Below, piece by piece: positions 7,525 to 51,343 of a stretch of DNA of 64,000 bases. The position numbers and the translations under genes were made by a program. The notes below the pieces were generated by a model. The model did no database searches. It saw only the letters and a list, made by a program, of their open reading frames with translations, and was not told the origin of the DNA. The stretch's first letter is position 1; every line of letters starts with the position of its first letter. Origin of the DNA: Parcubacteria group bacterium (lineage in GTDB: Bacteria; Patescibacteriota; Minisyncoccia; Phycocordibacterales; CALRBT01); assembly GCA_943354475.1 (NCBI GenBank), contig CALRBT010000001.1:23807-87806 (forward strand), written 5' to 3'.

Positions 7525-8463
7525 ATGTTTAAATTGAGCGCGCAGAGAGTACTAAAAGCAGGATTCGTTAACTTTTGGCGAAACGCCTTCGTCTCTGTTT
7601 CAGCAATGCTTGTGATGACCATAACCCTCTTTACGATGGGTTCTCTTATGTTTCTTGGGGCCGTGCTCAACTCCTCACTTCTCCAGATAAAAGAAAAGGT
7701 AGACATCAACATTTACTTTCTTACGAGTGCTTCTGAATCAAGAATTCTCTCACTTAAGGAAACAATCGATGCGCTTCCACAGGTTGAATCCACCACCTAT
7801 CGTTCAAGAGAAGAGGCTCTGGAGAATTTCAAGAAACGTAACCAAGACGATCAGCTCGTTCTCCAAGCACTCGATGAATTAGGGGGCAATCCACTTGAGG
7901 CGGTGCTTAACGTGAGAGCTAAGGACCCATCTCAGTACGAGGCGATTTATAATTTTCTAAAACCATACATTGTCGGCCCAACTAATGCCACTGAAATCCA
8001 GGGTCAAATCATCGAGAAAGCAAACTTTAACCAGAATAAAACATCAATCGAAACACTCACTAAGGTTATCAATTCATCTCGAACGCTCGGTACTGCAATC
8101 TCCATTATCCTTATCATTATCTCAACTCTAATTGCCTTCAACACCATCCGTTTGGCGATTTACAGCAGTAAAGATGAGATTGCTGTTATGAGGCTTGTCG
8201 GTGCCAGCAATATGTTCATTCGCGGGCCGTTCATTGTGGAGGGTTCGATGTACGGACTATTCTCGGCACTTTTTGTCCTCATCATTTTCTACCCATTACT
8301 CTACTGGATTGGTCCATATAGTGCAGGGTTCTTCGGAGGGCTCAACCTCTTTACCTACTATCTTCATAATTTCCTCGAGCTCTTCGTTATCCTCGTAGGT
8401 TCAGGAGTCATCATTGGTGCTATTTCGAGTTTCCTTGCTGTCCGCAAATACCTCTCTGCTTAA
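7525..8463 (+). CDS. ftsX: Cell division permease FtsX
   Basis: N-terminal TM helix, large periplasmic domain, three C-terminal TM helices with the typical FtsX 'AVMRLVGAS' motif region; adjacent to ftsE. Confidence 0.8.
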   Translation: MFKLSAQRVLKAGFVNFWRNAFVSVSAMLVMTITLFTMGSLMFLGAVLNSSLLQIKEKVDINIYFLTSASESRILSLKETIDALPQVESTTYRSREEALENFKKRNQDDQLVLQALDELGGNPLEAVLNVRAKDPSQYEAIYNFLKPYIVGPTNATEIQGQIIEKANFNQNKTSIETLTKVINSSRTLGTAISIILIIISTLIAFNTIRLAIYSSKDEIAVMRLVGASNMFIRGPFIVEGSMYGLFSALFVLIIFYPLLYWIGPYSAGFFGGLNLFTYYLHNFLELFVILVGSGVIIGAISSFLAVRKYLSA

Positions 8464-8634
8464 AACTGGTATAAGCGGCGCACTTTTTTGTCACTACGTT
8501 GTTCATTTTTTTCGCCGTACGTTTAGTACGTCTACAAAAATAAACTTCCTTGTTCCTCTTTCAGCAGAAAGACCTCTTTGTTAAAAGACCTACTTGGTAC
8601 TGGGTCGAGGTGCATCCACTTATACCAGTTTTAA
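8463..8634. repeat. Dispersed intergenic repeat, copy R1 (inside the terminator-like stem aaactggtataag/cttataccagttt)
   Basis: Shares ttgttcattt-ttcgccgtacgtttagtacgtctaca-aaataaacttcc and the 3' module acctac-tgggtcga-tgcatcca with copies at 47997-48119, 51188-51325 and 38475-38614. Confidence 0.75.
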
Positions 8635-8696
8635 CTAGAACTAAGGGTCGAAGTAATATAGATGGTACCCCCGCACGCTTCGCGTGCGGGGGTTGC

Positions 8697-10648: not shown

Positions 10649-10719
10649 TGCGGGATCGTCTAATGGTAGGACACATCCCTCTGGAGGATGGTATCTAGGT
10701 TCGAGTCCTAGTCCCGCAG
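10649..10719 (+). tRNA. tRNA-Gln (anticodon CTG)
   Basis: Acceptor tgcggga/tcccgca, 3-bp D-stem gtc/gac, anticodon stem catcc/ggatg with loop ctCTGga, T-arm ctagg-ttcgagt-cctag, discriminator G. Confidence 0.8.
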
Positions 10720-10745
10720 CCGTGGTCACAAAATAGACAATAGGT

Positions 10746-10788
10746 CCCTCTGGAGGATGGTATCTAGGTTCGAGTCCTAGTCCCGCAG
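10746..10788 (+). repeat. Direct duplicate of the tRNA-Gln 3' portion (anticodon loop to 3' end, 43 nt), only ~25 bp downstream of the intact gene
   Basis: ccctctggaggatggtatctaggttcgagtcctagtcccgcag is identical to tRNA positions ~31-72. Confidence 0.7.
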
Positions 10789-10871
10789 CCACCATATGCT
10801 AAGTCAGGAGACTGACACGCATAGGCATCTATTCCGAAAATGGCATACCTGCTGAGAGCAGTATTCAAGAC

Positions 10872-24893: not shown

Positions 24894-27800
24894 TTGTTAA
24901 TTAATTATATGAAACTAATCAAAGTACAGCAAAATATTTTCCCGAAGATTGTCGTTGTATTTCTAATGGTCAGTCTTTTGGTAACACCCCTAACACCACT
25001 CTCAGCTCAGGGTGTAGACCAATTGGAGCAAAACAAAGCTGTGCAGAGTCTGGTACAGAAACGTCCACTTGCTCAGGTGATAGATATTCCAGAAGTTATT
25101 ATTGGTACAAGCACTGTTGCTAATATTTCTCTGGTTGATTGGGATCAAAAAATAGAAGTTGGTGGAAAAAAAGTTTCGCTCAGTTCTGAAGAAGGACTTG
25201 CTTCAATTGAGCTTTCTCCAGTTATTCAAAAACTTGTAGAAGCATATCATGGAGACATCACTTCAATTGAGAGTGCACTTTTTGCACCCTCTTCTTTAAA
25301 GCTTGAGAAGAAGAAACATGCTACTGAAGCACTTCAGTATGGCATTGCACAGAGTCTTATTGAGGAAGGATTACTCCCTAATGATTACTTCGAGCTATTG
25401 GCACAAGGGTTTATTGAGCCTGCCGACAATCTTATAGACGCAAAGAAAGCTTTTATTAAAAAGCCAGGAGCGATAAAAGCAATGAAAGCCGAGGTTGTTC
25501 CCGAAGTAACTATTGTGGATATTACAACAGTGGAGGGGGGTCAGATTAACAAGAATAAGGAAAAGTCTTCACCTCTTGGATCATTATGGAATACAGTCAC
25601 AGGTATCGTTTCAGATATCGGAGGCTTTGTTGGTAATCAGTTTGCAAAATCCGGAACCGCTTCCAAGACGGCCGAGGTAAGTGGCACTTCTAATGGTATT
25701 ACAGAATCTTCTGCTGCACTGATCTCTGGTAACGCTTCAGCCCAGAGTGCTTTACAGTATCTTGTTAGTCATCAAAACACGGATGGTTCTTGGGGTAGTG
25801 GAAATTCTTTACTTACAACGACGAGTGCAGTACTTGATGCGCTCGACGTCTATGGCGAGATTGGGCCTGAATACCAAAAAGGAATCACTTGGATTGAATC
25901 GTACATTACTGATAACAACGACTATCGTGCTCAACAAGCTAAACGATTGGCACGAGCAGGTAGGACTATAAGTGAGTTGGAGTCGATTGCTAGTACCATA
26001 GACGATTCAACCGGAGGATTTTCATATGATGTTGGTTACCAAGCTGATCCAGCAACAACTGCTAAAGTGCTACAGGCACTCACTGAAGCAGGTTTTGAAG
26101 ATTCCGGGTCTAGTCCACGAGCCACGAGAACGCTTGCTCTCTATTATCTTACACAAACACAGCGGTTCGATAAGGGATGGAGTCTCTTTGATGATGGTGC
26201 TAGTTCTCTACCTGTAACAACGGATGTTATTAACGCACTTTTGCCCTACAAAGGTCAGTCGTTGCTCGGGGTTGGTTCTTCTAAAATCGTCATTGATTCC
26301 ACGATTAAACCTGCTCTGGATTCACTTAAGGCAACACAAATGTCCGATGGTAGCTGGGGTGGTGATCTGCTCAATACAGCAGTTGTTGTGCAGACGTTAA
26401 AGAAAGGAAAGACGGCCGCGACCTATGCACGTGAATCAATTTCGTATTTAGAAAATGCACAAGGGGTTGATGGAAGTTTTGGTGGGGGTGACATCTATCT
26501 AACAGCACAAGTGCTCAAGGCACTCGCCACGCCAGAACCCTCTGTTGGTAATCTCGCAGTTACCGACATTGCATCAACTAACCCCTTACAAACAAGAACT
26601 CCTGCGGGAATCAAGATTACGATAACAAACAGCGGTGACTTAGTGGCTAACAGCGGAATACTCCACCTTGTTGCTGACCACTATCTTATGGGGTCATTCA
26701 ATCTTGCAAGTAGTAGTCTCGTTATTAATCCACACACTTCGGCACAAATTACCGTTAATATTTCAAACACGGCTGGATATGTCGGGGATGTTGCCTTCGA
26801 TGCTTTCATTGAGGGAGTGGGGGATGTAATCTATGCTTCCTCGCGTTACCAGAAAACACTAACCTTTGCCGAAGACCCAACACACCTCCCAGGACTTCCA
26901 ATTTATTTTACTGCTCAGAAACATATTATTGACGGACAACCAGCTCTTAATGTTCGTTGGGGTAAGAAAAGTGATCCTAATCGACTTAATTACCTCATTA
27001 TGTGGCGAGTGGTAGGGGAAACGTCTTGGAATACTTATCCTATCGCCAATGATAAAAATGGTGCTTTCATTTCTCCTTATGTTGAGGATCAACTGTATGA
27101 AGTAACGGTTGGGGCCGTCACAGCGGATGGCACAAAGTATACTTACTATAGCTCTCCGGTTCAGGTAAGAGTAAGTGCTGATGCCAATAAATACACCTCA
27201 GGAACGGTCTCGGGTACGATGAGAGATGTTAATGGTCCGGTTGGAAATATAAGTCTCCTGGCTGGTGGTGATTTTGCAACCGTCGATGCGGATGGAAATT
27301 TCAATCTCACCCACGTTCCTTACGGAAAAGGTTGGGTCAGGGCGTCGAATTTTCGATACGAGGATTATGTTACGACGTTCAAAACTTCTGATAGTACTGT
27401 GATAAACCACAAAGCATACACGAACCTCGTACCGGATATCGCAACCCCAACGATTACTTATTTTGCCATGGCAAACGAAGCCGATTATAAAATGGAGAAT
27501 CTGGAAACGAAGTTCATTCATCTCGGAGTCGCTGACGATATTGGCATAACTGGCACAGGGATTGTTGCCAGTGCGAGTTTCTCCTATTATGATCCTCACG
27601 ATTCAACTTGGCACTCGATTGGGACAATGCAAGGTCCGCTCTCGAGCACTGTTGGATATTCGTGGAATGTTCCAGGCACTTTGTTTGGTCCAGGATACAA
27701 AATCAGAGCAACGATTCGAGATTATAGTGGTAAAGAGTCCGAGCCGACAGAATGGGGGCCATTTGAATTTACTCAAGGAAACGCAACACCAGAATTTGCT

Positions 27801-29534
27801 TTCGTAACCCCGCTATCAGCCACCACAACAGTCGCTGACCTTAGTCATACTATTGTCTGGACTGATAACGATAATGATGACAATGCCAGAATCTTACTTT
27901 CATATGACCCTGATGACACGCTAGATAATGTAAATCATACAAACATCACCACATTGTATGAAGACGATGTCGTTGATCAGTATATCTGGGACACATCAAA
28001 TATTCCCGAAGGCACTTATTATCTTTTCGCACTTGTTAGTGATAACCATAATGCCAATCAGGTGATCCATTCTCCTCAAAGGGTTACTATCACACACAGC
28101 GCACCAACTCCTCCATCCCTCTTACGTGCTGAAGGAAAAACAAATCCAACCAATATTACTGACCCAACTCCAGAATTCTCGGCAGTTTACAATGATCTCA
28201 ATGTAGGGGATGTGGCAAAGAAATATCGTATCCAGGTGGCAACATCGACCACGTTTACGTCAACAAAATGGGATTCAGGAATGGCCCTACTTGCGAGTTC
28301 AACCCCCCGAGGATTCCGTACCAAGGATATATCGTATACAGGTTCTTTGCTTGCGTCGAGTACACCATATTACTGGCGTATCAAGTTCTGGGATACAGCG
28401 GGTAGCGAAGGTTCGTGGAGTACTACGACAGCTTCTTTTTCACTTGCCCCATCAACTAATAGTTCTCCTACACCTCCAACATCACTACAAGTTGAAGGAA
28501 AAGCGAATCCAGTCACTATCACTAATCCACTACCAAAGTTTTCAGCAGTATATAACGATCTTAACTTAGGAGATCAAGCAAAGAAATATCAAATCCAAGT
28601 AGCAACCTCCACCACTTTTGTATCGACAAAATGGGATTCGGGAATGAAAGTTCTTGCAACCTCGACTCCTCGAGGTGGGCGTATTCAAAGCGTTACCTAC
28701 AATGGCTCGTCTCTCGCCTCAAGTACTCAGTATTATTGGCGTATAAAACTATGGGATGCAAATAGTAATGAAGGTGCGTGGAGTACTACGACAGCAAGCT
28801 TCTCTCTAGCTGCCTCTACGAGTAAGCCACCTCTTGCACCAACAGAGCTTCGCACTGAAGGCCTAGTAGACCCAATCAATGTTACCGACTCAACCCCAGA
28901 GTTCTCAGCTGTGTACAACGATCCAAATATTGGGGATATGGCAAAGAAATATCAAATCCAAGTAGCAACCTCTACAACTTTCACTTCTCTTGCATGGAAT
29001 TCAGGCACGGTATTACTTGCAACCTCAACCCCTCGAAGTGGTCGTACATACGCCATTGCATATACCGGATCAACACTTGCATCAAGCACAACCTATTATT
29101 GGCGAATAAGATTGTGGGATACTGCCGGTAACGAAGGTTTGTGGAGCACGACAACTGCTAGTTTCTTGTTATTGCCAAAAAACAATATTCCAACCGCTCC
29201 GACATCACTACAAACCGAAGGGTTGACTAATCCAACCAACATTATCGACTCAACCCCGGATTTCTCTGCAATATATAACGATGTTGATCTTGGTGACCTT
29301 GCAAAACGGTATCGTATCCAAGTATCGACCTCAACAACATTTTCGACTCTAAAATGGGATTCAGGAACCACTCTACTTGCAAGTTTAACGCCGATAGGTT
29401 CGCGTATTACGGACGTTTCCTACAGTGGCTCGTCTCTCGCCTCAAGCACAACCTATTATTGGCGTATTAGATTTTGGGATACTAGAGAGGGTGGTGGCGC
29501 TTGGAGTAGTAGATCGTCATTCTCTCTAAAATGA
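24894..29534 (+). CDS. Very large surface protein: signal/TM anchor, squalene-cyclase/prenyltransferase-like alpha-alpha toroid repeats, CARDB-like and carboxypeptidase-regulatory-like domains, five tandem FN3-like repeats
   Basis: QNTDGSWG, SDGSWGG and GVDGSFGG repeats; NSGDLVANSG (CARDB-like); five ~105-aa repeats each carrying YYWRI(K/R)(F/L)WD...G.WS. Confidence 0.7.
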   Translation: MLINYMKLIKVQQNIFPKIVVVFLMVSLLVTPLTPLSAQGVDQLEQNKAVQSLVQKRPLAQVIDIPEVIIGTSTVANISLVDWDQKIEVGGKKVSLSSEEGLASIELSPVIQKLVEAYHGDITSIESALFAPSSLKLEKKKHATEALQYGIAQSLIEEGLLPNDYFELLAQGFIEPADNLIDAKKAFIKKPGAIKAMKAEVVPEVTIVDITTVEGGQINKNKEKSSPLGSLWNTVTGIVSDIGGFVGNQFAKSGTASKTAEVSGTSNGITESSAALISGNASAQSALQYLVSHQNTDGSWGSGNSLLTTTSAVLDALDVYGEIGPEYQKGITWIESYITDNNDYRAQQAKRLARAGRTISELESIASTIDDSTGGFSYDVGYQADPATTAKVLQALTEAGFEDSGSSPRATRTLALYYLTQTQRFDKGWSLFDDGASSLPVTTDVINALLPYKGQSLLGVGSSKIVIDSTIKPALDSLKATQMSDGSWGGDLLNTAVVVQTLKKGKTAATYARESISYLENAQGVDGSFGGGDIYLTAQVLKALATPEPSVGNLAVTDIASTNPLQTRTPAGIKITITNSGDLVANSGILHLVADHYLMGSFNLASSSLVINPHTSAQITVNISNTAGYVGDVAFDAFIEGVGDVIYASSRYQKTLTFAEDPTHLPGLPIYFTAQKHIIDGQPALNVRWGKKSDPNRLNYLIMWRVVGETSWNTYPIANDKNGAFISPYVEDQLYEVTVGAVTADGTKYTYYSSPVQVRVSADANKYTSGTVSGTMRDVNGPVGNISLLAGGDFATVDADGNFNLTHVPYGKGWVRASNFRYEDYVTTFKTSDSTVINHKAYTNLVPDIATPTITYFAMANEADYKMENLETKFIHLGVADDIGITGTGIVASASFSYYDPHDSTWHSIGTMQGPLSSTVGYSWNVPGTLFGPGYKIRATIRDYSGKESEPTEWGPFEFTQGNATPEFAFVTPLSATTTVADLSHTIVWTDNDNDDNARILLSYDPDDTLDNVNHTNITTLYEDDVVDQYIWDTSNIPEGTYYLFALVSDNHNANQVIHSPQRVTITHSAPTPPSLLRAEGKTNPTNITDPTPEFSAVYNDLNVGDVAKKYRIQVATSTTFTSTKWDSGMALLASSTPRGFRTKDISYTGSLLASSTPYYWRIKFWDTAGSEGSWSTTTASFSLAPSTNSSPTPPTSLQVEGKANPVTITNPLPKFSAVYNDLNLGDQAKKYQIQVATSTTFVSTKWDSGMKVLATSTPRGGRIQSVTYNGSSLASSTQYYWRIKLWDANSNEGAWSTTTASFSLAASTSKPPLAPTELRTEGLVDPINVTDSTPEFSAVYNDPNIGDMAKKYQIQVATSTTFTSLAWNSGTVLLATSTPRSGRTYAIAYTGSTLASSTTYYWRIRLWDTAGNEGLWSTTTASFLLLPKNNIPTAPTSLQTEGLTNPTNIIDSTPDFSAIYNDVDLGDLAKRYRIQVSTSTTFSTLKWDSGTTLLASLTPIGSRITDVSYSGSSLASSTTYYWRIRFWDTREGGGAWSSRSSFSLK
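28090..29530 (+). repeat. Coding tandem repeat (~315-bp unit x ~4.5) encoding the FN3-like modules
   Basis: Recurrent caatccaac...acccc(a/g)gaattctc(g/a)gc...tattggcgtat segments. Confidence 0.7.
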
Positions 29535-37874: not shown

Positions 37875-38474
37875 ATGATGAGATTAAAAGAACTATATCG
37901 GCTCATCTTGCCTCAAACACATCTCAATCGTAGTTTGCGTATTTTGATTAGTGTTAATACAGGGATGGTGTTTGTCGTTGGAATATTCGCTCCATTCTAC
38001 GCCGTGTTTGTTCAAAACATTGGGGGGAGTATTGCTTGGATTGGATTTTCTTGGGCACTCCTTTCGATTGTCTCTGGTGTATTGATATTACTCTTCACGA
38101 ACCTTGAGATGAAAGTGAGAGAACAGGAGTTACTCTTAGCTCTGGGTTATTTTTTACGCGGAATCGTATTTCTTAGCTATGCTTTTATGACCAACCTCAC
38201 CGAACTCATTTTTGCTCAAATACTTTGGGGTATAGCTGCTGCTATCGGTGTGCCCGCTTTCGATGCAGTCTATCAAGCGCATACAACAAATGAGGATGCT
38301 ATCGTTCAGTGGGGTGGGTGGGAAGGAATCGCATCGATTGCAACAGGAGTCGCTGCTCTTATTGGAGGATTCGTAATTGAAGGATTTGGCTACCAAGCCG
38401 TCTTCTTGATTATGTCGGCGATTTGTTTTGGGTTGGGTTTCTATGTCTGGCGATTACCACGAGAAGTATTATAA
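37875..38474 (+). CDS. Half-size MFS-like membrane protein (C-terminal 6-TM half only); possible truncated transporter
   Basis: 199 aa from MMRLKEL with 6 TM helices; the ORF-track start 37794 overlaps the upstream gene, and ATG 37875 follows its stop. Confidence 0.4.
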   Translation: MMRLKELYRLILPQTHLNRSLRILISVNTGMVFVVGIFAPFYAVFVQNIGGSIAWIGFSWALLSIVSGVLILLFTNLEMKVREQELLLALGYFLRGIVFLSYAFMTNLTELIFAQILWGIAAAIGVPAFDAVYQAHTTNEDAIVQWGGWEGIASIATGVAALIGGFVIEGFGYQAVFLIMSAICFGLGFYVWRLPREVL

Positions 38475-38614
38475 CTTATATATTTGGTGAACTTCTTTGT
38501 TGAAATCGTCGGTTTCTCCTTCATCATACGTTCAAGTATGACTCAGTCGCAACCTCGATTTCGCCTCATTGAGCACAATGACCTACTGGGTCGAACTCCA
38601 CTCAAATCTATAAG
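38475..38614. repeat. Dispersed intergenic repeat, diverged copy R4 (flanked by cttatatatttgg/caaatctataag)
   Basis: Contains acttctttgttg, catcatacgttcaagtatgactcag and tcgcctcattgagcacaatgacctactgggtcgaa, all shared with copy R3. Confidence 0.65.
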
Positions 38615-38637
38615 TTCTAAGCAGAAGTAAAAATTAT

Positions 38638-39348: not shown

Positions 39349-40077
39349 ATGGACGAGAAACCAATTTCAAAAAGTAATTTACTCATTCCGTTCTCAATCA
39401 TTTTTGCTGGGTTGATTATCGGCGGTGCTGTGTACTTTAGTAACAATCGTAGTGGTGGAGCAGCGGTTCCTGGGGCCAAGGTTCCAGCTGTTGCTGCGGA
39501 CATCTCAAAGGTGGTTACTGACGGAAGGCCGTTTATAGGAAATCCAAATGCAAAAGTTACTATTGCGTATTGGTTTGATTATCAATGTCCGTACTGTAAA
39601 CTCAATGAGCAAAAGAATATCTCACAGATTGTTGCACAGTACGTACAGACAGGAAAAGTAAAAATCGTATTCAAGGACTATCAGTTCTTGGGCATGTATT
39701 CAAAAGATCAGGGAAGGGATGACTCAATGTCCGCAGCACTTATGGCAAGGGCTGTTTGGGAGGTATCCCCTGAAAAATTCTACGATTGGCATAGTGCGGT
39801 AATGAATAAGCAAGATGATGAAAATGCTGGTTGGGGGAGTGAAGCAGATCTCCTTGCGCTGACCAAGACAATTCCTGGAGTTGATGCGGTCAAAGTCCAA
39901 GGGTTGATGGTTTCTAAGAAGGCTGTCTATGAGAAAATGATTAATGAAGACAGGACCGAGGGTGCTTCGTTTGGTATTGAAGGCACTCCAGCGATGATTG
40001 TTGGTAAAGAGGTTCTTGGAGGCTATATTCAAGATTTTCCAAAGATTTCAGGACCAATTGATGCATTACTAAAATAG
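39349..40077 (+). CDS. DsbA-family thiol:disulfide oxidoreductase (CPYC)
   Basis: N-terminal TM anchor; WFDYQCPYCK. Confidence 0.7.
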   Translation: MDEKPISKSNLLIPFSIIFAGLIIGGAVYFSNNRSGGAAVPGAKVPAVAADISKVVTDGRPFIGNPNAKVTIAYWFDYQCPYCKLNEQKNISQIVAQYVQTGKVKIVFKDYQFLGMYSKDQGRDDSMSAALMARAVWEVSPEKFYDWHSAVMNKQDDENAGWGSEADLLALTKTIPGVDAVKVQGLMVSKKAVYEKMINEDRTEGASFGIEGTPAMIVGKEVLGGYIQDFPKISGPIDALLK

Positions 40078-40086
40078 AGGTTAGTT

Positions 40087-40136
40087 ACAAAAACAAAACA
40101 CCGGCAAGCTTTGCTTGCCGGTGTTTTGTTTTTGTA
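40087..40136 (+). terminator. Rho-independent terminator (long palindrome)
   Basis: acaaaaacaaaacaccggcaagc-tttg-cttgccggtgttttgtttttgt. Confidence 0.7.
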
Positions 40137-40536
40137 ATTTATCAATAGTTCACCCTATAAATCAACAACACCCCAAACCGGAGTGCGATTAAGGGTGGAA
40201 TGGTGTAGCACAAAATGTGCTTAGTATAAAAAAGAACAAAAGCGATGTTCGTCGCCGTCGGGACAGGCCCGACGGCTTCGAATTCGATGACCTCGAACCA
40301 GGTCAGCCGACGGCACCGACGTAGCCACTGGCCGTGGTCGAGTCGTGCGCCGTGACGAGGCGCCGATGAACCGTTGCCAGGTGACGGGCCATTGCGATCG
40401 TCGCGGCGTCTTGATCGATACTGAACCGTTTTTTTGTCAACTAATTAAACTGTTGATAATCGCAGTGCGTTTTTCGGATCCTGGAAGCATAAACATGTTT
40501 GTTTTGTTCGCCTAAAACTTTGTTATACTCAACACA

Positions 40537-47996: not shown

Positions 47997-48119
47997 AAAA
48001 CTTCCAAAGTTAGCGAATTTCTTTGTTGTGTCGTTGCTGATTTCTTTCGTCGTACGTTCAGTACGTCTACAGAAATCAGCTTCCTAACGCCGCGAACTTC
48101 ATCTAGCTTTGAAAGTTTT
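47997..48119. repeat. Dispersed intergenic repeat, copy R2 (inside stem aaaacttccaaag/ctttgaaagtttt); lacks the 3' module
   Basis: ctttgttg...ttcgtcgtacgttcagtacgtctacagaaatcagcttcc is homologous to R1 and R3. Confidence 0.7.
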
Positions 48120-48907: not shown

Positions 48908-49780
48908 ATGATTGATATAAATAGAACAAATGAACTAGCGCAGGTTGCTAATAACATAAGGCAGTCAATTATTGAGATGCTTCTTCAAGCTGGTTCAGGA
49001 CACACGGCAGGACCACTTGGAATGGCGGATGTATTCACTGCGCTCTACTTTGAAATTCTACACCATGACCCAAAGCGACCTGATTGGACGGATCGAGATA
49101 GATTGGTCCTCTCCAATGGACACATCAACCCAGTTCTTTATGCGACAATGGCACACGCAGGCTATTTTCCAGTTGAGGAGTTGAAGACTCTTCGTAAATT
49201 TGGCTCTAGGCTCCAAGGTCACCCGCATCGTGAATGGCTTCCAGTTCTCGAGAATAGTTCGGGACCACTTGGCTCTGGGTTATCTCAAGCAGTTGGTATG
49301 ACACTCGCTGATAGAATGGATAAGAGTGTTACTTCAAATAGGTTTTTCTATTGTTTGCTTGGTGATGGGGAACTTGATGAAGGGCAAAACTGGGAGGCGA
49401 TGATGCTTGCCGGTAAAGAGCGGTTGCACAACCTGATTGCAATCGTTGATCGCAACAACATTCAGATTGATGGCTACACTGAGGATGTGATGCCACTTGA
49501 GTCACTCCGGGCAAAATGGGAAGCATTCAACTGGCATGTAATGGAGATTGATGGACATAATTTTAGTGAAATTATTTCAGCAGTTGAACAGGGGAAAGCG
49601 GTGTTTAATAAACCGTCAGTGATTATTGCTCACACAATCCCTGGTAAAGGTGTTGCTGAATTTGAACGAAAGTTTGAGTGGCACGGCAAGGCACCAAATA
49701 AAGAGGAAGCCGCAATGGCGCTTTCTGAACTAAGGAATCTAAGAACTTTCGGTGGTAAGATAACAGGTGAGCATGAATAA
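48908..49780 (+). CDS. Transketolase, N-terminal (TPP-binding) subunit
   Basis: GSGHTAGPLGMADVF, SNGH, GDGELDEGQNWEA. Confidence 0.85.
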   Translation: MIDINRTNELAQVANNIRQSIIEMLLQAGSGHTAGPLGMADVFTALYFEILHHDPKRPDWTDRDRLVLSNGHINPVLYATMAHAGYFPVEELKTLRKFGSRLQGHPHREWLPVLENSSGPLGSGLSQAVGMTLADRMDKSVTSNRFFYCLLGDGELDEGQNWEAMMLAGKERLHNLIAIVDRNNIQIDGYTEDVMPLESLRAKWEAFNWHVMEIDGHNFSEIISAVEQGKAVFNKPSVIIAHTIPGKGVAEFERKFEWHGKAPNKEEAAMALSELRNLRTFGGKITGEHE

Positions 49781-50204
49781 AATTATATTTAAAAAAATTT
49801 ATCACGCATTTGTTGTTATCTACTTATTCCTTTTATGGGTACCACTTTTTGGTAACAAACTTTTTTATAGTTGTGGTTTTGTCTATCCATATGGAGCTGA
49901 CACGGATCGTATATATTCCTTAAAAGAAATGTTTGACGCGAGGGTGTGTACTTTTCGATTTGGTTCAGGACTTGAGAATATATACGATACCTTTTTCAGA
50001 TCTCTTTTTGGAGTTGGGAATTTTTATATTTTCGTCAGTATCCTCTCTGGAGTACTCGTGATTTCCAGTATTCTTTTGATAAAAAGTAGGTACATATTAC
50101 CGACAAAACCGTTTTATAGGTCGTTAGATTTTTATCTGATCGTTGTCTCGTCTGTGTTACTCGTTTTCGTCCTGCTAGGTTATTTTTTAATTTTGAAAAA
50201 ATGA
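49767..50204 (+). CDS. Small membrane protein (hypothetical) wedged between the two transketolase subunit genes
   Basis: 145 aa, 3-4 TM helices; overlaps the tkt-N stop by 14 nt and the tkt-C start by 4 nt. Confidence 0.45.
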   Translation: MSMNKIIFKKIYHAFVVIYLFLLWVPLFGNKLFYSCGFVYPYGADTDRIYSLKEMFDARVCTFRFGSGLENIYDTFFRSLFGVGNFYIFVSILSGVLVISSILLIKSRYILPTKPFYRSLDFYLIVVSSVLLVFVLLGYFLILKK

Positions 50205-51184
50205 TCCCTCTAAACCCAAAACTTTTTGATAAAGACGTGGAGCAAGTACCAATCCGTAAAGGATTTGGTGAAGGATTAGTGCTTGCGGCAGAAAACGATG
50301 AGAGGGTTGTTGGACTTTGTGCCGACCTTACTGATTCAACTGTAATGAACCTCTTTAAGAGTAAGTTTCCAGATCGATTTATTCAGATGGGAGTTGCGGA
50401 ACAAAATCTTGCTTCCGTTGCATCGGGAATGGCAGCAATGGGTAAGATTCCATTTATAACCTCCTACGCAATGTTTTCCCCTGGGCGGAACTGGGAGCAG
50501 ATTCGTACCACTATTTGTTATAACGATAGACCGGTCAAGATTGCAGGTTCACACGCTGGTGTTTCGGTTGGTCCTGATGGCGGCACACACCAAGCAATAG
50601 AGGATATTGCACTAACACGAGTAATTCCGAGAATGGTAGTGCTCTCACCTTGTGATGCAATCGAAGCCAAAAAAGCGACTAGACTTGCAGCACTCACAAA
50701 TACCCCTGTTTATATTCGGCTTGCTCGAGAGAAAACTCCGGTAATAACTACAGATGAGACCCCTTTCCAAATTGGCAAAGCACAAATCTTTTATGAACCT
50801 AAAAAAGGCAAGGTGCAAGTTGGAATCATTGCAACAGGCGCACTCGTCTACAATGCAATTGTGGCAGCCAAGGAGTTAGAAGAGGAGGGGATTAAGGTCA
50901 AAGTGATGAACCTCGCGACGATTAAACCACTCGATAATGAGGCGATTATTGAGTTAGCAAAAGAATGTAAACGAATCGTTGCTGTAGAGGAACATCAAAT
51001 TGCAGGTGGAATGGGTTCTGCGGTGGCGGAGTGTTTAGCACAGCAATATCCAGTTCCCCAAGAATTTATCGGAGTTCGGGATGAGTTTGGTCAGTCAGGA
51101 ACACCATCTGAGCTTATCGAACATTATGGGATGGGAATCCGTTCAATTAAAGAAGCTGTCAAAAAAGTTTTAGCAAGAAAGTAG
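50201..51184 (+). CDS. Transketolase, C-terminal (pyrimidine-binding) subunit
   Basis: GEGLVLAAEND, MGVAEQN, GPDGGTHQAIEDIA. Confidence 0.85.
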   Translation: MIPLNPKLFDKDVEQVPIRKGFGEGLVLAAENDERVVGLCADLTDSTVMNLFKSKFPDRFIQMGVAEQNLASVASGMAAMGKIPFITSYAMFSPGRNWEQIRTTICYNDRPVKIAGSHAGVSVGPDGGTHQAIEDIALTRVIPRMVVLSPCDAIEAKKATRLAALTNTPVYIRLAREKTPVITTDETPFQIGKAQIFYEPKKGKVQVGIIATGALVYNAIVAAKELEEEGIKVKVMNLATIKPLDNEAIIELAKECKRIVAVEEHQIAGGMGSAVAECLAQQYPVPQEFIGVRDEFGQSGTPSELIEHYGMGIRSIKEAVKKVLARK

Positions 51185-51187
51185 AAC

Positions 51188-51325
51188 CAACGTTTTCGGC
51201 ACACTTCTTTGTTGCTTCGTTGTTCATTTCTTCCGCCGTACGTTTAGTACGTCTACAGAAATAAACTTCCTCGCACCTCATTGAGCACAATGACCTACTG
51301 GGTCGAATTGCATCCAAAAACGTTG
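51188..51325. repeat. Dispersed intergenic repeat, copy R3 (inside stem caacgttttcgg/ccaaaaacgttg), full length
   Basis: cacttctttgttgcttcgttgttcatttcttccgccgtacgtttagtacgtctacagaaataaacttcctcgcacctcattgagcacaatgacctactgggtcgaattgcatcca. Confidence 0.75.
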
Positions 51326-51343
51326 ATTCCAGTAATATATATT

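Follow-up and report, generated by a model that had tools for sequence, protein, structure and literature searches.

A dispersed hairpin repeat with copy-specific closing arms behind genes of a Parcubacteria group bacterium

Introduction

[quoted passage not shown] Here we describe an element with these traits, co-transcription being a presumed one, in a 64,000-nucleotide stretch of DNA (the window) from a Parcubacteria group bacterium (contig CALRBT010000001.1, positions 23,807 to 87,806), an uncultured, ultra-small member of the candidate phyla radiation (CPR, or Patescibacteria). Homologues of rpiB and ftsX assign the window to CPR bacteria of the Paceibacteria/Parcubacteria type. The element differs from MITEs in having no conserved terminal inverted repeats (TIRs), a terminal helix that is hypervariable apart from AAC/GTT, and no known parent insertion sequence; its target duplication, if there is one, is AAC alone and is clean in two of the four copies.

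Three other described systems come close. Pneumococcal BOX elements (boxA-boxB-boxC) are generally known for modules that are present, absent or exchanged, for ends that pair as a stem-loop and for a position close to gene ends, all of which the present element shares; their end modules are conserved in sequence, whereas its outermost helix is not, and no sequence relationship was found. Integron attC sites are likewise imperfect palindromes of similar size at gene 3' ends, variable in sequence with AAC/GTT at the stem base. Unlike most attC, the element has a conserved interior and a variable stem, its neighbours are syntenic housekeeping genes rather than cassettes, and no integrase was seen. 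Membership was rejected on the R''/R' boxes (RYYYAAC / GTTRRRY), which TTAAAAC / GTTTTAA and similar ends do not match, and on relatives in which the same neighbour genes stand without the element. Repetitive extragenic palindromes (REPs), their doublets (REPINs) and the IS200/IS605-derived palindrome-associated transposable elements (PATEs) are, like the element, structure-dependent hairpins without classical TIRs or target-site duplications (TSDs). Further traits of the PATE/REP type are the conserved short AAC flank on one side and the common orientation of the full copies on the replichore. REPs are 20-40-nt GC-rich hairpins with conserved stems, whereas the element measures 123-171 bp and has an AT-rich variable outer stem; it also departs from these systems in that no REP-associated tyrosine transposase, TnpA or TnpB was seen in ~75 kb of home DNA and in that a solitary 3' module is oppositely oriented. 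Nor is the element a short conserved GC-rich palindrome with a GTAG head, as a REP/REPIN would be.

Literature searches on the sequence motifs and on dispersed CPR repeats returned no description, and the element is a new repeat family of a familiar bacterial type (MITE/BOX/ERIC-like). We give about an even chance to the reading that it is a family of self-contained, non-autonomous, structure-dependent mobile hairpin elements, MITE/BOX-like in behaviour, in a CPR bacterium.

Results

Four copies share one frame and exchange modules

Four full copies lie on the + strand of the window, where a preliminary description made from the letters alone had placed a dispersed repeat: copy 1 (8462-8632) after ftsX, copy 2 (47997-48119) at the rpiB-rpe junction, copy 3 (51183-51330) after the gene for the transketolase C-terminal subunit, and copy 4 (38471-38618) after a gene for an MFS transporter. 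The repeat is borne out by a 26-mer core probe, which has three matches at <=1 mismatch in the window against none expected from shuffles, and by an nhmmer profile of the four copies, which recovers each of them (E = 1e-24 to 1e-40); a repeat finder independently lists the same family (D2, D8 and D10). With four full copies and one fragment in 64 kb, the element is short, non-coding, dispersed and multicopy, as MITEs are. Its unit length is 123-171 bp, and each copy is one long imperfect palindrome, or hairpin, closed by copy-specific arms. No conserved open reading frame (ORF) was found in the element; a search for a spurious ORF with the translation of the core (FFRRTFSTSTEI) returned only the window's own 55-aa call. 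Promoter and terminator counts within the copies are not above those of shuffles.

Anchoring on the conserved core ends revealed a fixed 5'->3' frame in all four copies: ANAAC, nine variable nucleotides, a core of 95-143 nt, nine complementary nucleotides, and GTTYT (ATTCC in copy 3). Copy 1 opens with AAAAC (8462-8466) and arm TGGTATAAG (8467-8475), holds a 143-nt core (8476-8618) with a 23-nt internal insertion, and closes with arm CTTATACCA (8619-8627) and GTTTT (8628-8632), after which AAC follows (8633-8635). Copy 2, a short form lacking the 3' module, runs from AAAAC (47997-48001) and arm TTCCAAAGT (48002-48010) through a 95-nt core (48011-48105) to arm GCTTTGAAA (48106-48114) and GTTTT (48115-48119), again followed by AAC. 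The 120-nt core of copy 3 (51197-51316) stands between AGAAC (51183-51187) with arm CAACGTTTT (51188-51196) and arm AAAACGTTG (51317-51325) with ATTCC (51326-51330). Copy 4 begins with ATAAC (38471-38475), which overlaps the TAA stop codon, and arm TTATATATT (38476-38484); its core (38485-38604), in which the central domain is swapped for a compensated variant, is closed by arm AATCTATAA (38605-38613) and GTTCT (38614-38618). The arms pair at 9/9, 7/9, 9/9 and 8/9 positions in copies 1 to 4. The copy-specific inverted repeats of the preliminary description do differ between copies, but they are 14-bp helices with a conserved outer AAC/GTT and not arbitrary repeats of 12-13 bp; the T-run that it placed after each stem is present as TTTT in two of the four, and the other two have no real T-run.

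The core starts with YRGYRMAMTTYTTTGT and finishes with GARNTNCAYYYA. It is built from a base helix that is conserved (YGGYRMAC / GYGCAYCCA), the CTTCTTTGTTG box, a long central hairpin whose 10-bp helix bears an internal loop and the tip at its end, and an optional 3' module. The tip CGTAC-GTTYA-GTACG ends the 10-bp covarying helix at 51237-51251, 8516-8530 and 48051-48065; the hairpin noticed earlier as conserved is thus present in copies 1-3, while copy 4 has the compensated variant CATAC-GTTCAA-GTATG (38525-38540). The 3' module is CCT followed by a covarying 5-bp stem, whose loop is AGCA, and then ACCTACTGGGTCGA; it lies at 51267-51318, at 38555-38606 and at 8546-8620, where it contains the 23-nt insertion of copy 1. 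Copies 1 and 3 share the central domain and have 86% core identity, and copies 3 and 4 share a 3' module that is 91% identical (D8) without sharing the central domain. Copy 4, previously called diverged, owes this to a central hairpin that is different in sequence and equivalent in structure; its 5' box and 3' module are almost unchanged. Modules are mixed between copies.

No further full copies came to light. Searches with nhmmer on the whole element and with a covariance model of the 3' module gave no extra copies in ~290 kb of relatives and other loci, and scans of GTDB genomes and JGI metagenomes with a 21-mer of the core, in which exact matches were demanded, returned only a MITE of Syntrophorhabdaceae (see below) and added no copy from CPR bacteria. 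In viral contigs there was either no hit or a coding match attributable to chance. The remaining assemblies of this population match the window at 100% identity, and strain polymorphism was not seen among them; two of these assemblies end inside or beside a copy, as expected of a multicopy repeat.

A folded single strand is under selection

The copies fold with z-scores of -3.6 to -5.6 on the + strand and -4.9 to -6.6 on the reverse complement. The minimum free energy is lower on the reverse complement in three of the four copies, and the consensus energy is -39.5 kcal/mol there versus -26.7 kcal/mol on the described strand. In the reverse-complement alignment (A4), standard pairs occupy 91.5% of the pair cells, compared with 77% in shuffles and ~40% when the 3' partner is slid, and in 20 of the 49 pairs both partners change. 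Different copies have CATTG/CAATG, CTTTC/GAAAG, CATTC/GAATG and GATTC/GAATC as the 3'-module stem. The helices are maintained by compensated changes. Because of the covariation counts and the better fold than shuffles, we conclude that a folded single strand of the element, whichever of the two it may be and whether as RNA or as DNA, is under selection. Rfam 15, which the preliminary description had suggested consulting, matched no family near its gathering score and returned tRNAs and noise only. A CUGUAGA...GAA stretch that by eye resembles a hammerhead ribozyme core lacks A6, and a GGGTCGAA...CCA stretch resembles a T-arm by eye; neither has Rfam support, and both were set aside.

Selection on a fold raises the possibility of a cis-acting RNA module that reached several operons by duplication and is kept by purifying selection, with only pairing constrained in the closing helix; it might, for instance, stabilise a 3'-untranslated or intercistronic region, act in processing or attenuation, or bind a protein. 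Covariation extends to every helix, and the loops do not vary. The four full copies all lie in sense to the gene before them and begin at its stop codon, P1 brings this stop codon and the next start codon together in copies 2-4, and copy 1, being upstream of the real ftsX terminator, should be in the mRNA. We nevertheless hold such an origin to be unlikely, as the orthologous sites of all relatives lack the element, the host genes (ftsX, rpiB, tkt and the MFS gene) are functionally unrelated, and the better fold belongs to the reverse complement in three of four copies and in the consensus. The 3' module, moreover, stands in the opposite orientation in two other contexts (a group I intron, and the repeats and reverse transcriptase of a diversity-generating retroelement, DGR), the tip is common to a bona fide MITE, and no Rfam family matches.

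The units were gained directly after stop codons

The copies stand among ordinary genes, in the neighbourhoods prfB-ftsE-ftsX-pyrG, gap-rpiB-rpe-tktN-tktC-DUF1653 and MFS-lactamase-dsbA. In the nearest syntenic relatives on record (76-86% protein identity), the whole unit, stem included, is missing at all four orthologous sites. At rpiB/rpe the genes overlap in L013 (TAATG, ccaaTAATGagagaa) and are 2 nt apart in L009 and 10 nt apart in L014. The tkt/DUF1653 spacers of relatives (39 and 88 nt) hold no element, that of L013 holding an unrelated hairpin, and the MFS/lactamase spacer of a relative is 59 nt long and likewise without it. Between ftsX and pyrG, L037 and L039 have a GC-rich terminator hairpin and then a conserved TTGCC...TATAAT promoter. 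This terminator is intact in the window (8664-8695), as is the pyrG promoter, both downstream of copy 1; copy 1 with its own stem sits between the ftsX stop codon and the terminator, and the flank to its right, AACTAGAACTAAG, has AACAAGAACTAAG as its orthologous counterpart in L037. In each case the upstream stop codon abuts or overlaps the AAC of the frame (TAA-AAC, TGAgaa-AAC, TAG-AAC and TA[AAC] in copies 1 to 4), and the four copies, all sense to the upstream gene, have a single orientation on the replichore. Gain of the units took place within this lineage, immediately behind stop codons. The earlier view of a dispersed non-coding hairpin element gained at these sites thus holds, given the empty orthologous sites and the want of an Rfam match.

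The preliminary description had gone further, placing the core in the loops of pre-existing rho-independent terminators: a mobile core would target the apical loop of such hairpins, and the stems would be native to each locus. The genome is rich in long gene-end hairpins with A- and T-tracts, often starting AAAAC, and long hairpins turn over quickly between relatives; the unrelated hairpin in the L013 tkt spacer and the solitary 3' module at the tips of unrelated stems in two more places also speak for invasion. Yet three relatives have no hairpin at rpiB/rpe, the element lies next to, and not within, the conserved and intact ftsX terminator, and two events would be needed per site where one suffices. 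The empty terminator that loop invasion predicts, a stem without the insert, was sought at the orthologous sites, and the relatives lack the stem as well at all four. Hairpins native to this genome combine GC-rich cores and A/T tracts with stems of variable length and loops of 0-6 nt, whereas the arms of the element have a GC fraction of 0-0.33, are always 9 bp long with AAC/GTT and enclose a 'loop' of 95-143 nt. A terminator scan called none of the four stems, and of the marks of a terminator host (GC-rich stem, 3-8-nt loop, U-run, pre-existence) only the T-run is seen, at two of the four. With AT-rich arms of fixed 9 bp unlike native hairpins, empty relatives and a separate, intact ftsX terminator, the stems arrived with the element and are not invaded terminators, and loop invasion is an improbable account of the family.

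Among native hairpins, the terminator that follows dsbA is retained by three species at corresponding positions (window 40072-40150, L009 2084-2136, L013 1576-1616). Its tip is conserved (CAAGC-nnn-GCTTG) and its outer stem is wholly rewritten by compensated changes, which means that long hairpins turn over fast in this lineage.

All four units have AAC as the left flank; on the right, copies 1 and 2 have AAC, copy 4 AAG and copy 3 AGT, with a possible ATGAGA repeat at rpiB/rpe. Excising {N9-core-N9'-GTTTT-AAC} restores, by eye, colinearity with what L037 and L014 have at their empty sites. A putative insertion at AAC that duplicated 3 bp would account for this, although copies 3 and 4 do not show it cleanly.

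A MITE from another phylum shares the hairpin tip

Outside the CPR copies, the core 21-mer occurs in a ~363-bp MITE found in the Syntrophorhabdaceae metagenome-assembled genome CAZHHX01 and in JGI metagenome contigs (L001-L005, L015-L023; an example copy is L005 7270-7570). This MITE has conserved 14-16-bp TIRs (GGKWTTGTCAAAAG) and ~8-bp direct duplications (TAAACATT in L005, GAATGGT in L021). Common to it and the CPR element are a 29-nt tip, CTTCCGnCGTACGTTYAGTACGTCTACAG, on a long covarying hairpin, an upstream CTTTG box, a 3'-side CATCCA stretch and the same better-folding strand, the reverse complement of the MITE folding 2-25 kcal/mol better. It differs in its TIRs and TSDs, in being twice as long, in coming from another phylum and in lacking the 3' module. 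That the two share the tip by chance is unlikely, because ~0.5 chance matches are expected per collection (our own calculation for the 21-mer, by which the loci were selected), because the match extends over 8 of 9 further bases, and because it occupies the same structural position. Just outside the core, the stem of the MITE is 86% identical between copies, compared with 98% for the core, and its changes are compensated.

The 3' module outside the full copies

A fifth, partial copy is a solitary 3' module on the - strand (2026-2077), at the tip of an unrelated hairpin with 36-nt arms (2015-2090). It lies ~50 nt 3' of a sub-threshold Rfam match to a group I intron (1769-1978; 40.9 bits, E 2.4e-8), which is preceded by a LAGLIDADG_3 ORF (1123-1740); 1123-1978 is probably an ORF-bearing group I intron. 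A 19-nt direct repeat, CAGCACCCATCAGCCGCGC, at 2007-2025 and 2214-2232 flanks a highly structured non-coding stretch here. In the relative L039, another solitary 3' module occupies the tip of an unrelated stem between the variable region (VR) and the template repeat (TR) of a DGR (bAvd, RVT_1); the 3'-module model found no match in the spacer of the L035/L036 DGR. In the closest relatives a DGR lies upstream of the ftsEX cluster (L039 1693-3717, L035 1937-4059); its VR/TR pairs differ specifically at adenines, and it includes genes for a divergent bAvd and for RVT_1. No DGR occupies that place in the window. The element as a DGR accessory RNA was rejected, since a TR/VR-Avd-reverse transcriptase neighbourhood surrounds only the solitary module of L039 and the window is without a DGR.

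Relative to the intron or to the strand of the DGR repeats and reverse transcriptase, both solitary modules are oriented opposite to the four full copies. This opposite orientation argues for a DNA-level, orientation-free origin of the 3' module, and its contexts keep open a link to reverse transcription, even though the window lacks a DGR. The tip and the 3' module might be portable single-strand recognition modules of an enzyme that places them at hairpin tips or builds a fresh 9-bp inverted repeat with every insertion, possibly a DGR-type reverse transcriptase or a structure-specific nuclease or recombinase; we consider this quite unlikely.

Why the closing arms differ

The 9-bp arms agree at 1-5 of nine positions between copies, and what is otherwise kept is only AAC/GTT and the inner YGG/CCA. 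We prefer the reading in which the arms belong to the element and would be constrained in pairing alone, drifting faster than the core, because the stem of the Syntrophorhabdaceae MITE also outpaces its core. From the 86% versus 98% identity of stem and core in that MITE, saturation of a 9-bp arm would be expected at the 14-45% core divergence of the CPR copies. The flanking inverted repeats are part of the repeat in architecture but not in sequence, which in part bears out the objection that the preliminary description had raised against its own model.

Arms created or captured at each insertion are the second reading that remains with no more than four copies to compare. The 9-bp inverted repeat might be a product of insertion itself, as when self-primed (snap-back) synthesis crosses the base helix, or the element might spread by reverse transcription with the 3' module as the recognition element of the enzyme. 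Similarity of the arms does not track similarity of the core: copies 1 and 3, at 86% core identity, have one of nine arm positions in common, and both arm pairs are perfect. In copies 1 and 4 (I6, I24) the pairing extends beyond AAC to the region of the stop codon, and the module in the VR-TR spacer of the L039 DGR also fits. We regard either version as very unlikely nonetheless, as the empty sites of relatives contain neither arm, the window has no reverse transcriptase or DGR, the L035/L036 spacer gave no match to the module, and no new chemistry is needed to explain the data if pairing-only helices drift faster, as they do in the Syntrophorhabdaceae MITE. Two other sources of the arms were also discarded. 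As guides or copies of other loci they have no recurrent matches elsewhere, and as an inverted or direct duplication of the local flank they are missing, both of them, from the empty sites; one apparent match at ftsX was not repeated at the other loci.

Other features of the window

A 143-aa ORF among the tkt genes (49773-50204) was considered as a small transposase and is a hydrophobic membrane protein instead. It has no Pfam hit on record and separates the genes for the transketolase N- and C-subunits, which are adjacent or overlapping in L009 and L013. An exact 46-nt duplication (10676-10721 and 10745-10790) of the 3' half of a tRNA gene (10649-10719) could have been left behind by an integrase that mediated insertion or excision at a tRNA. 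At 40240-40420, a foreign-looking, G+C-rich island of ~180 bp in the AT-rich dsbA-ygjP spacer could be a gene fragment from a high-GC organism or an assembly chimera. Four tandem repeats of ~363 nt (28129-29514; 67-72% identity) within a 1546-aa ORF (24894-29534) are a repeated protein domain.

Discussion

A family of mobile hairpins could work as follows. A trans-acting enzyme would copy the element by recognising its folded single strand, the conserved tip and loops serving as contacts for this protein. The closing helix would be structural; with pairing alone under selection, it would diverge ~10x faster than the core and so look 'locus-specific'. Insertion would occur next to AAC, possibly with a 3-bp AAC duplication, and the element would land in the few permissive nucleotides between the stop and start codons of a very compact genome, where it would be tolerated because of that placement. 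Once inserted, it would be carried passively in the mRNA of the upstream gene, as a 3' or intercistronic segment.

Several observations weigh against such mobility. The sense orientation behind genes in all four copies and the covarying helices would equally fit a selected RNA. Terminal inverted repeats are not conserved, as those of MITEs are, and the uncoupling of arms and core in copies 1 and 3 could instead reflect arms that are formed afresh with every insertion. Only four full copies were seen, too few to reveal subfamilies with recurrent arms. The AAC duplication is clean in just two of the four. Finally, the ~75 kb of home genome covered by the analysis contain no annotated transposase, recombinase, integrase or reverse transcriptase, and the recorded Pfam hits of the called genes include no integrase domain.

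The genomes of CPR/Patescibacteria are extremely compact, and a structured multicopy element that goes in precisely between stop and start codons, even at the rpiB-rpe junction, bears on how they tolerate selfish DNA. It bears as well on where metagenome assemblies of these organisms break, and on how operon expression survives a 130-nt hairpin. The combination of a hypervariable closing helix with modules common to a DGR spacer and to a MITE of another phylum would be of interest if it stems from a common structure-reading enzyme. If portable modules of such an enzyme were the true explanation, this would be a mobility mechanism undescribed for bacterial repeats, with modules crossing phyla from CPR to Desulfobacterota.

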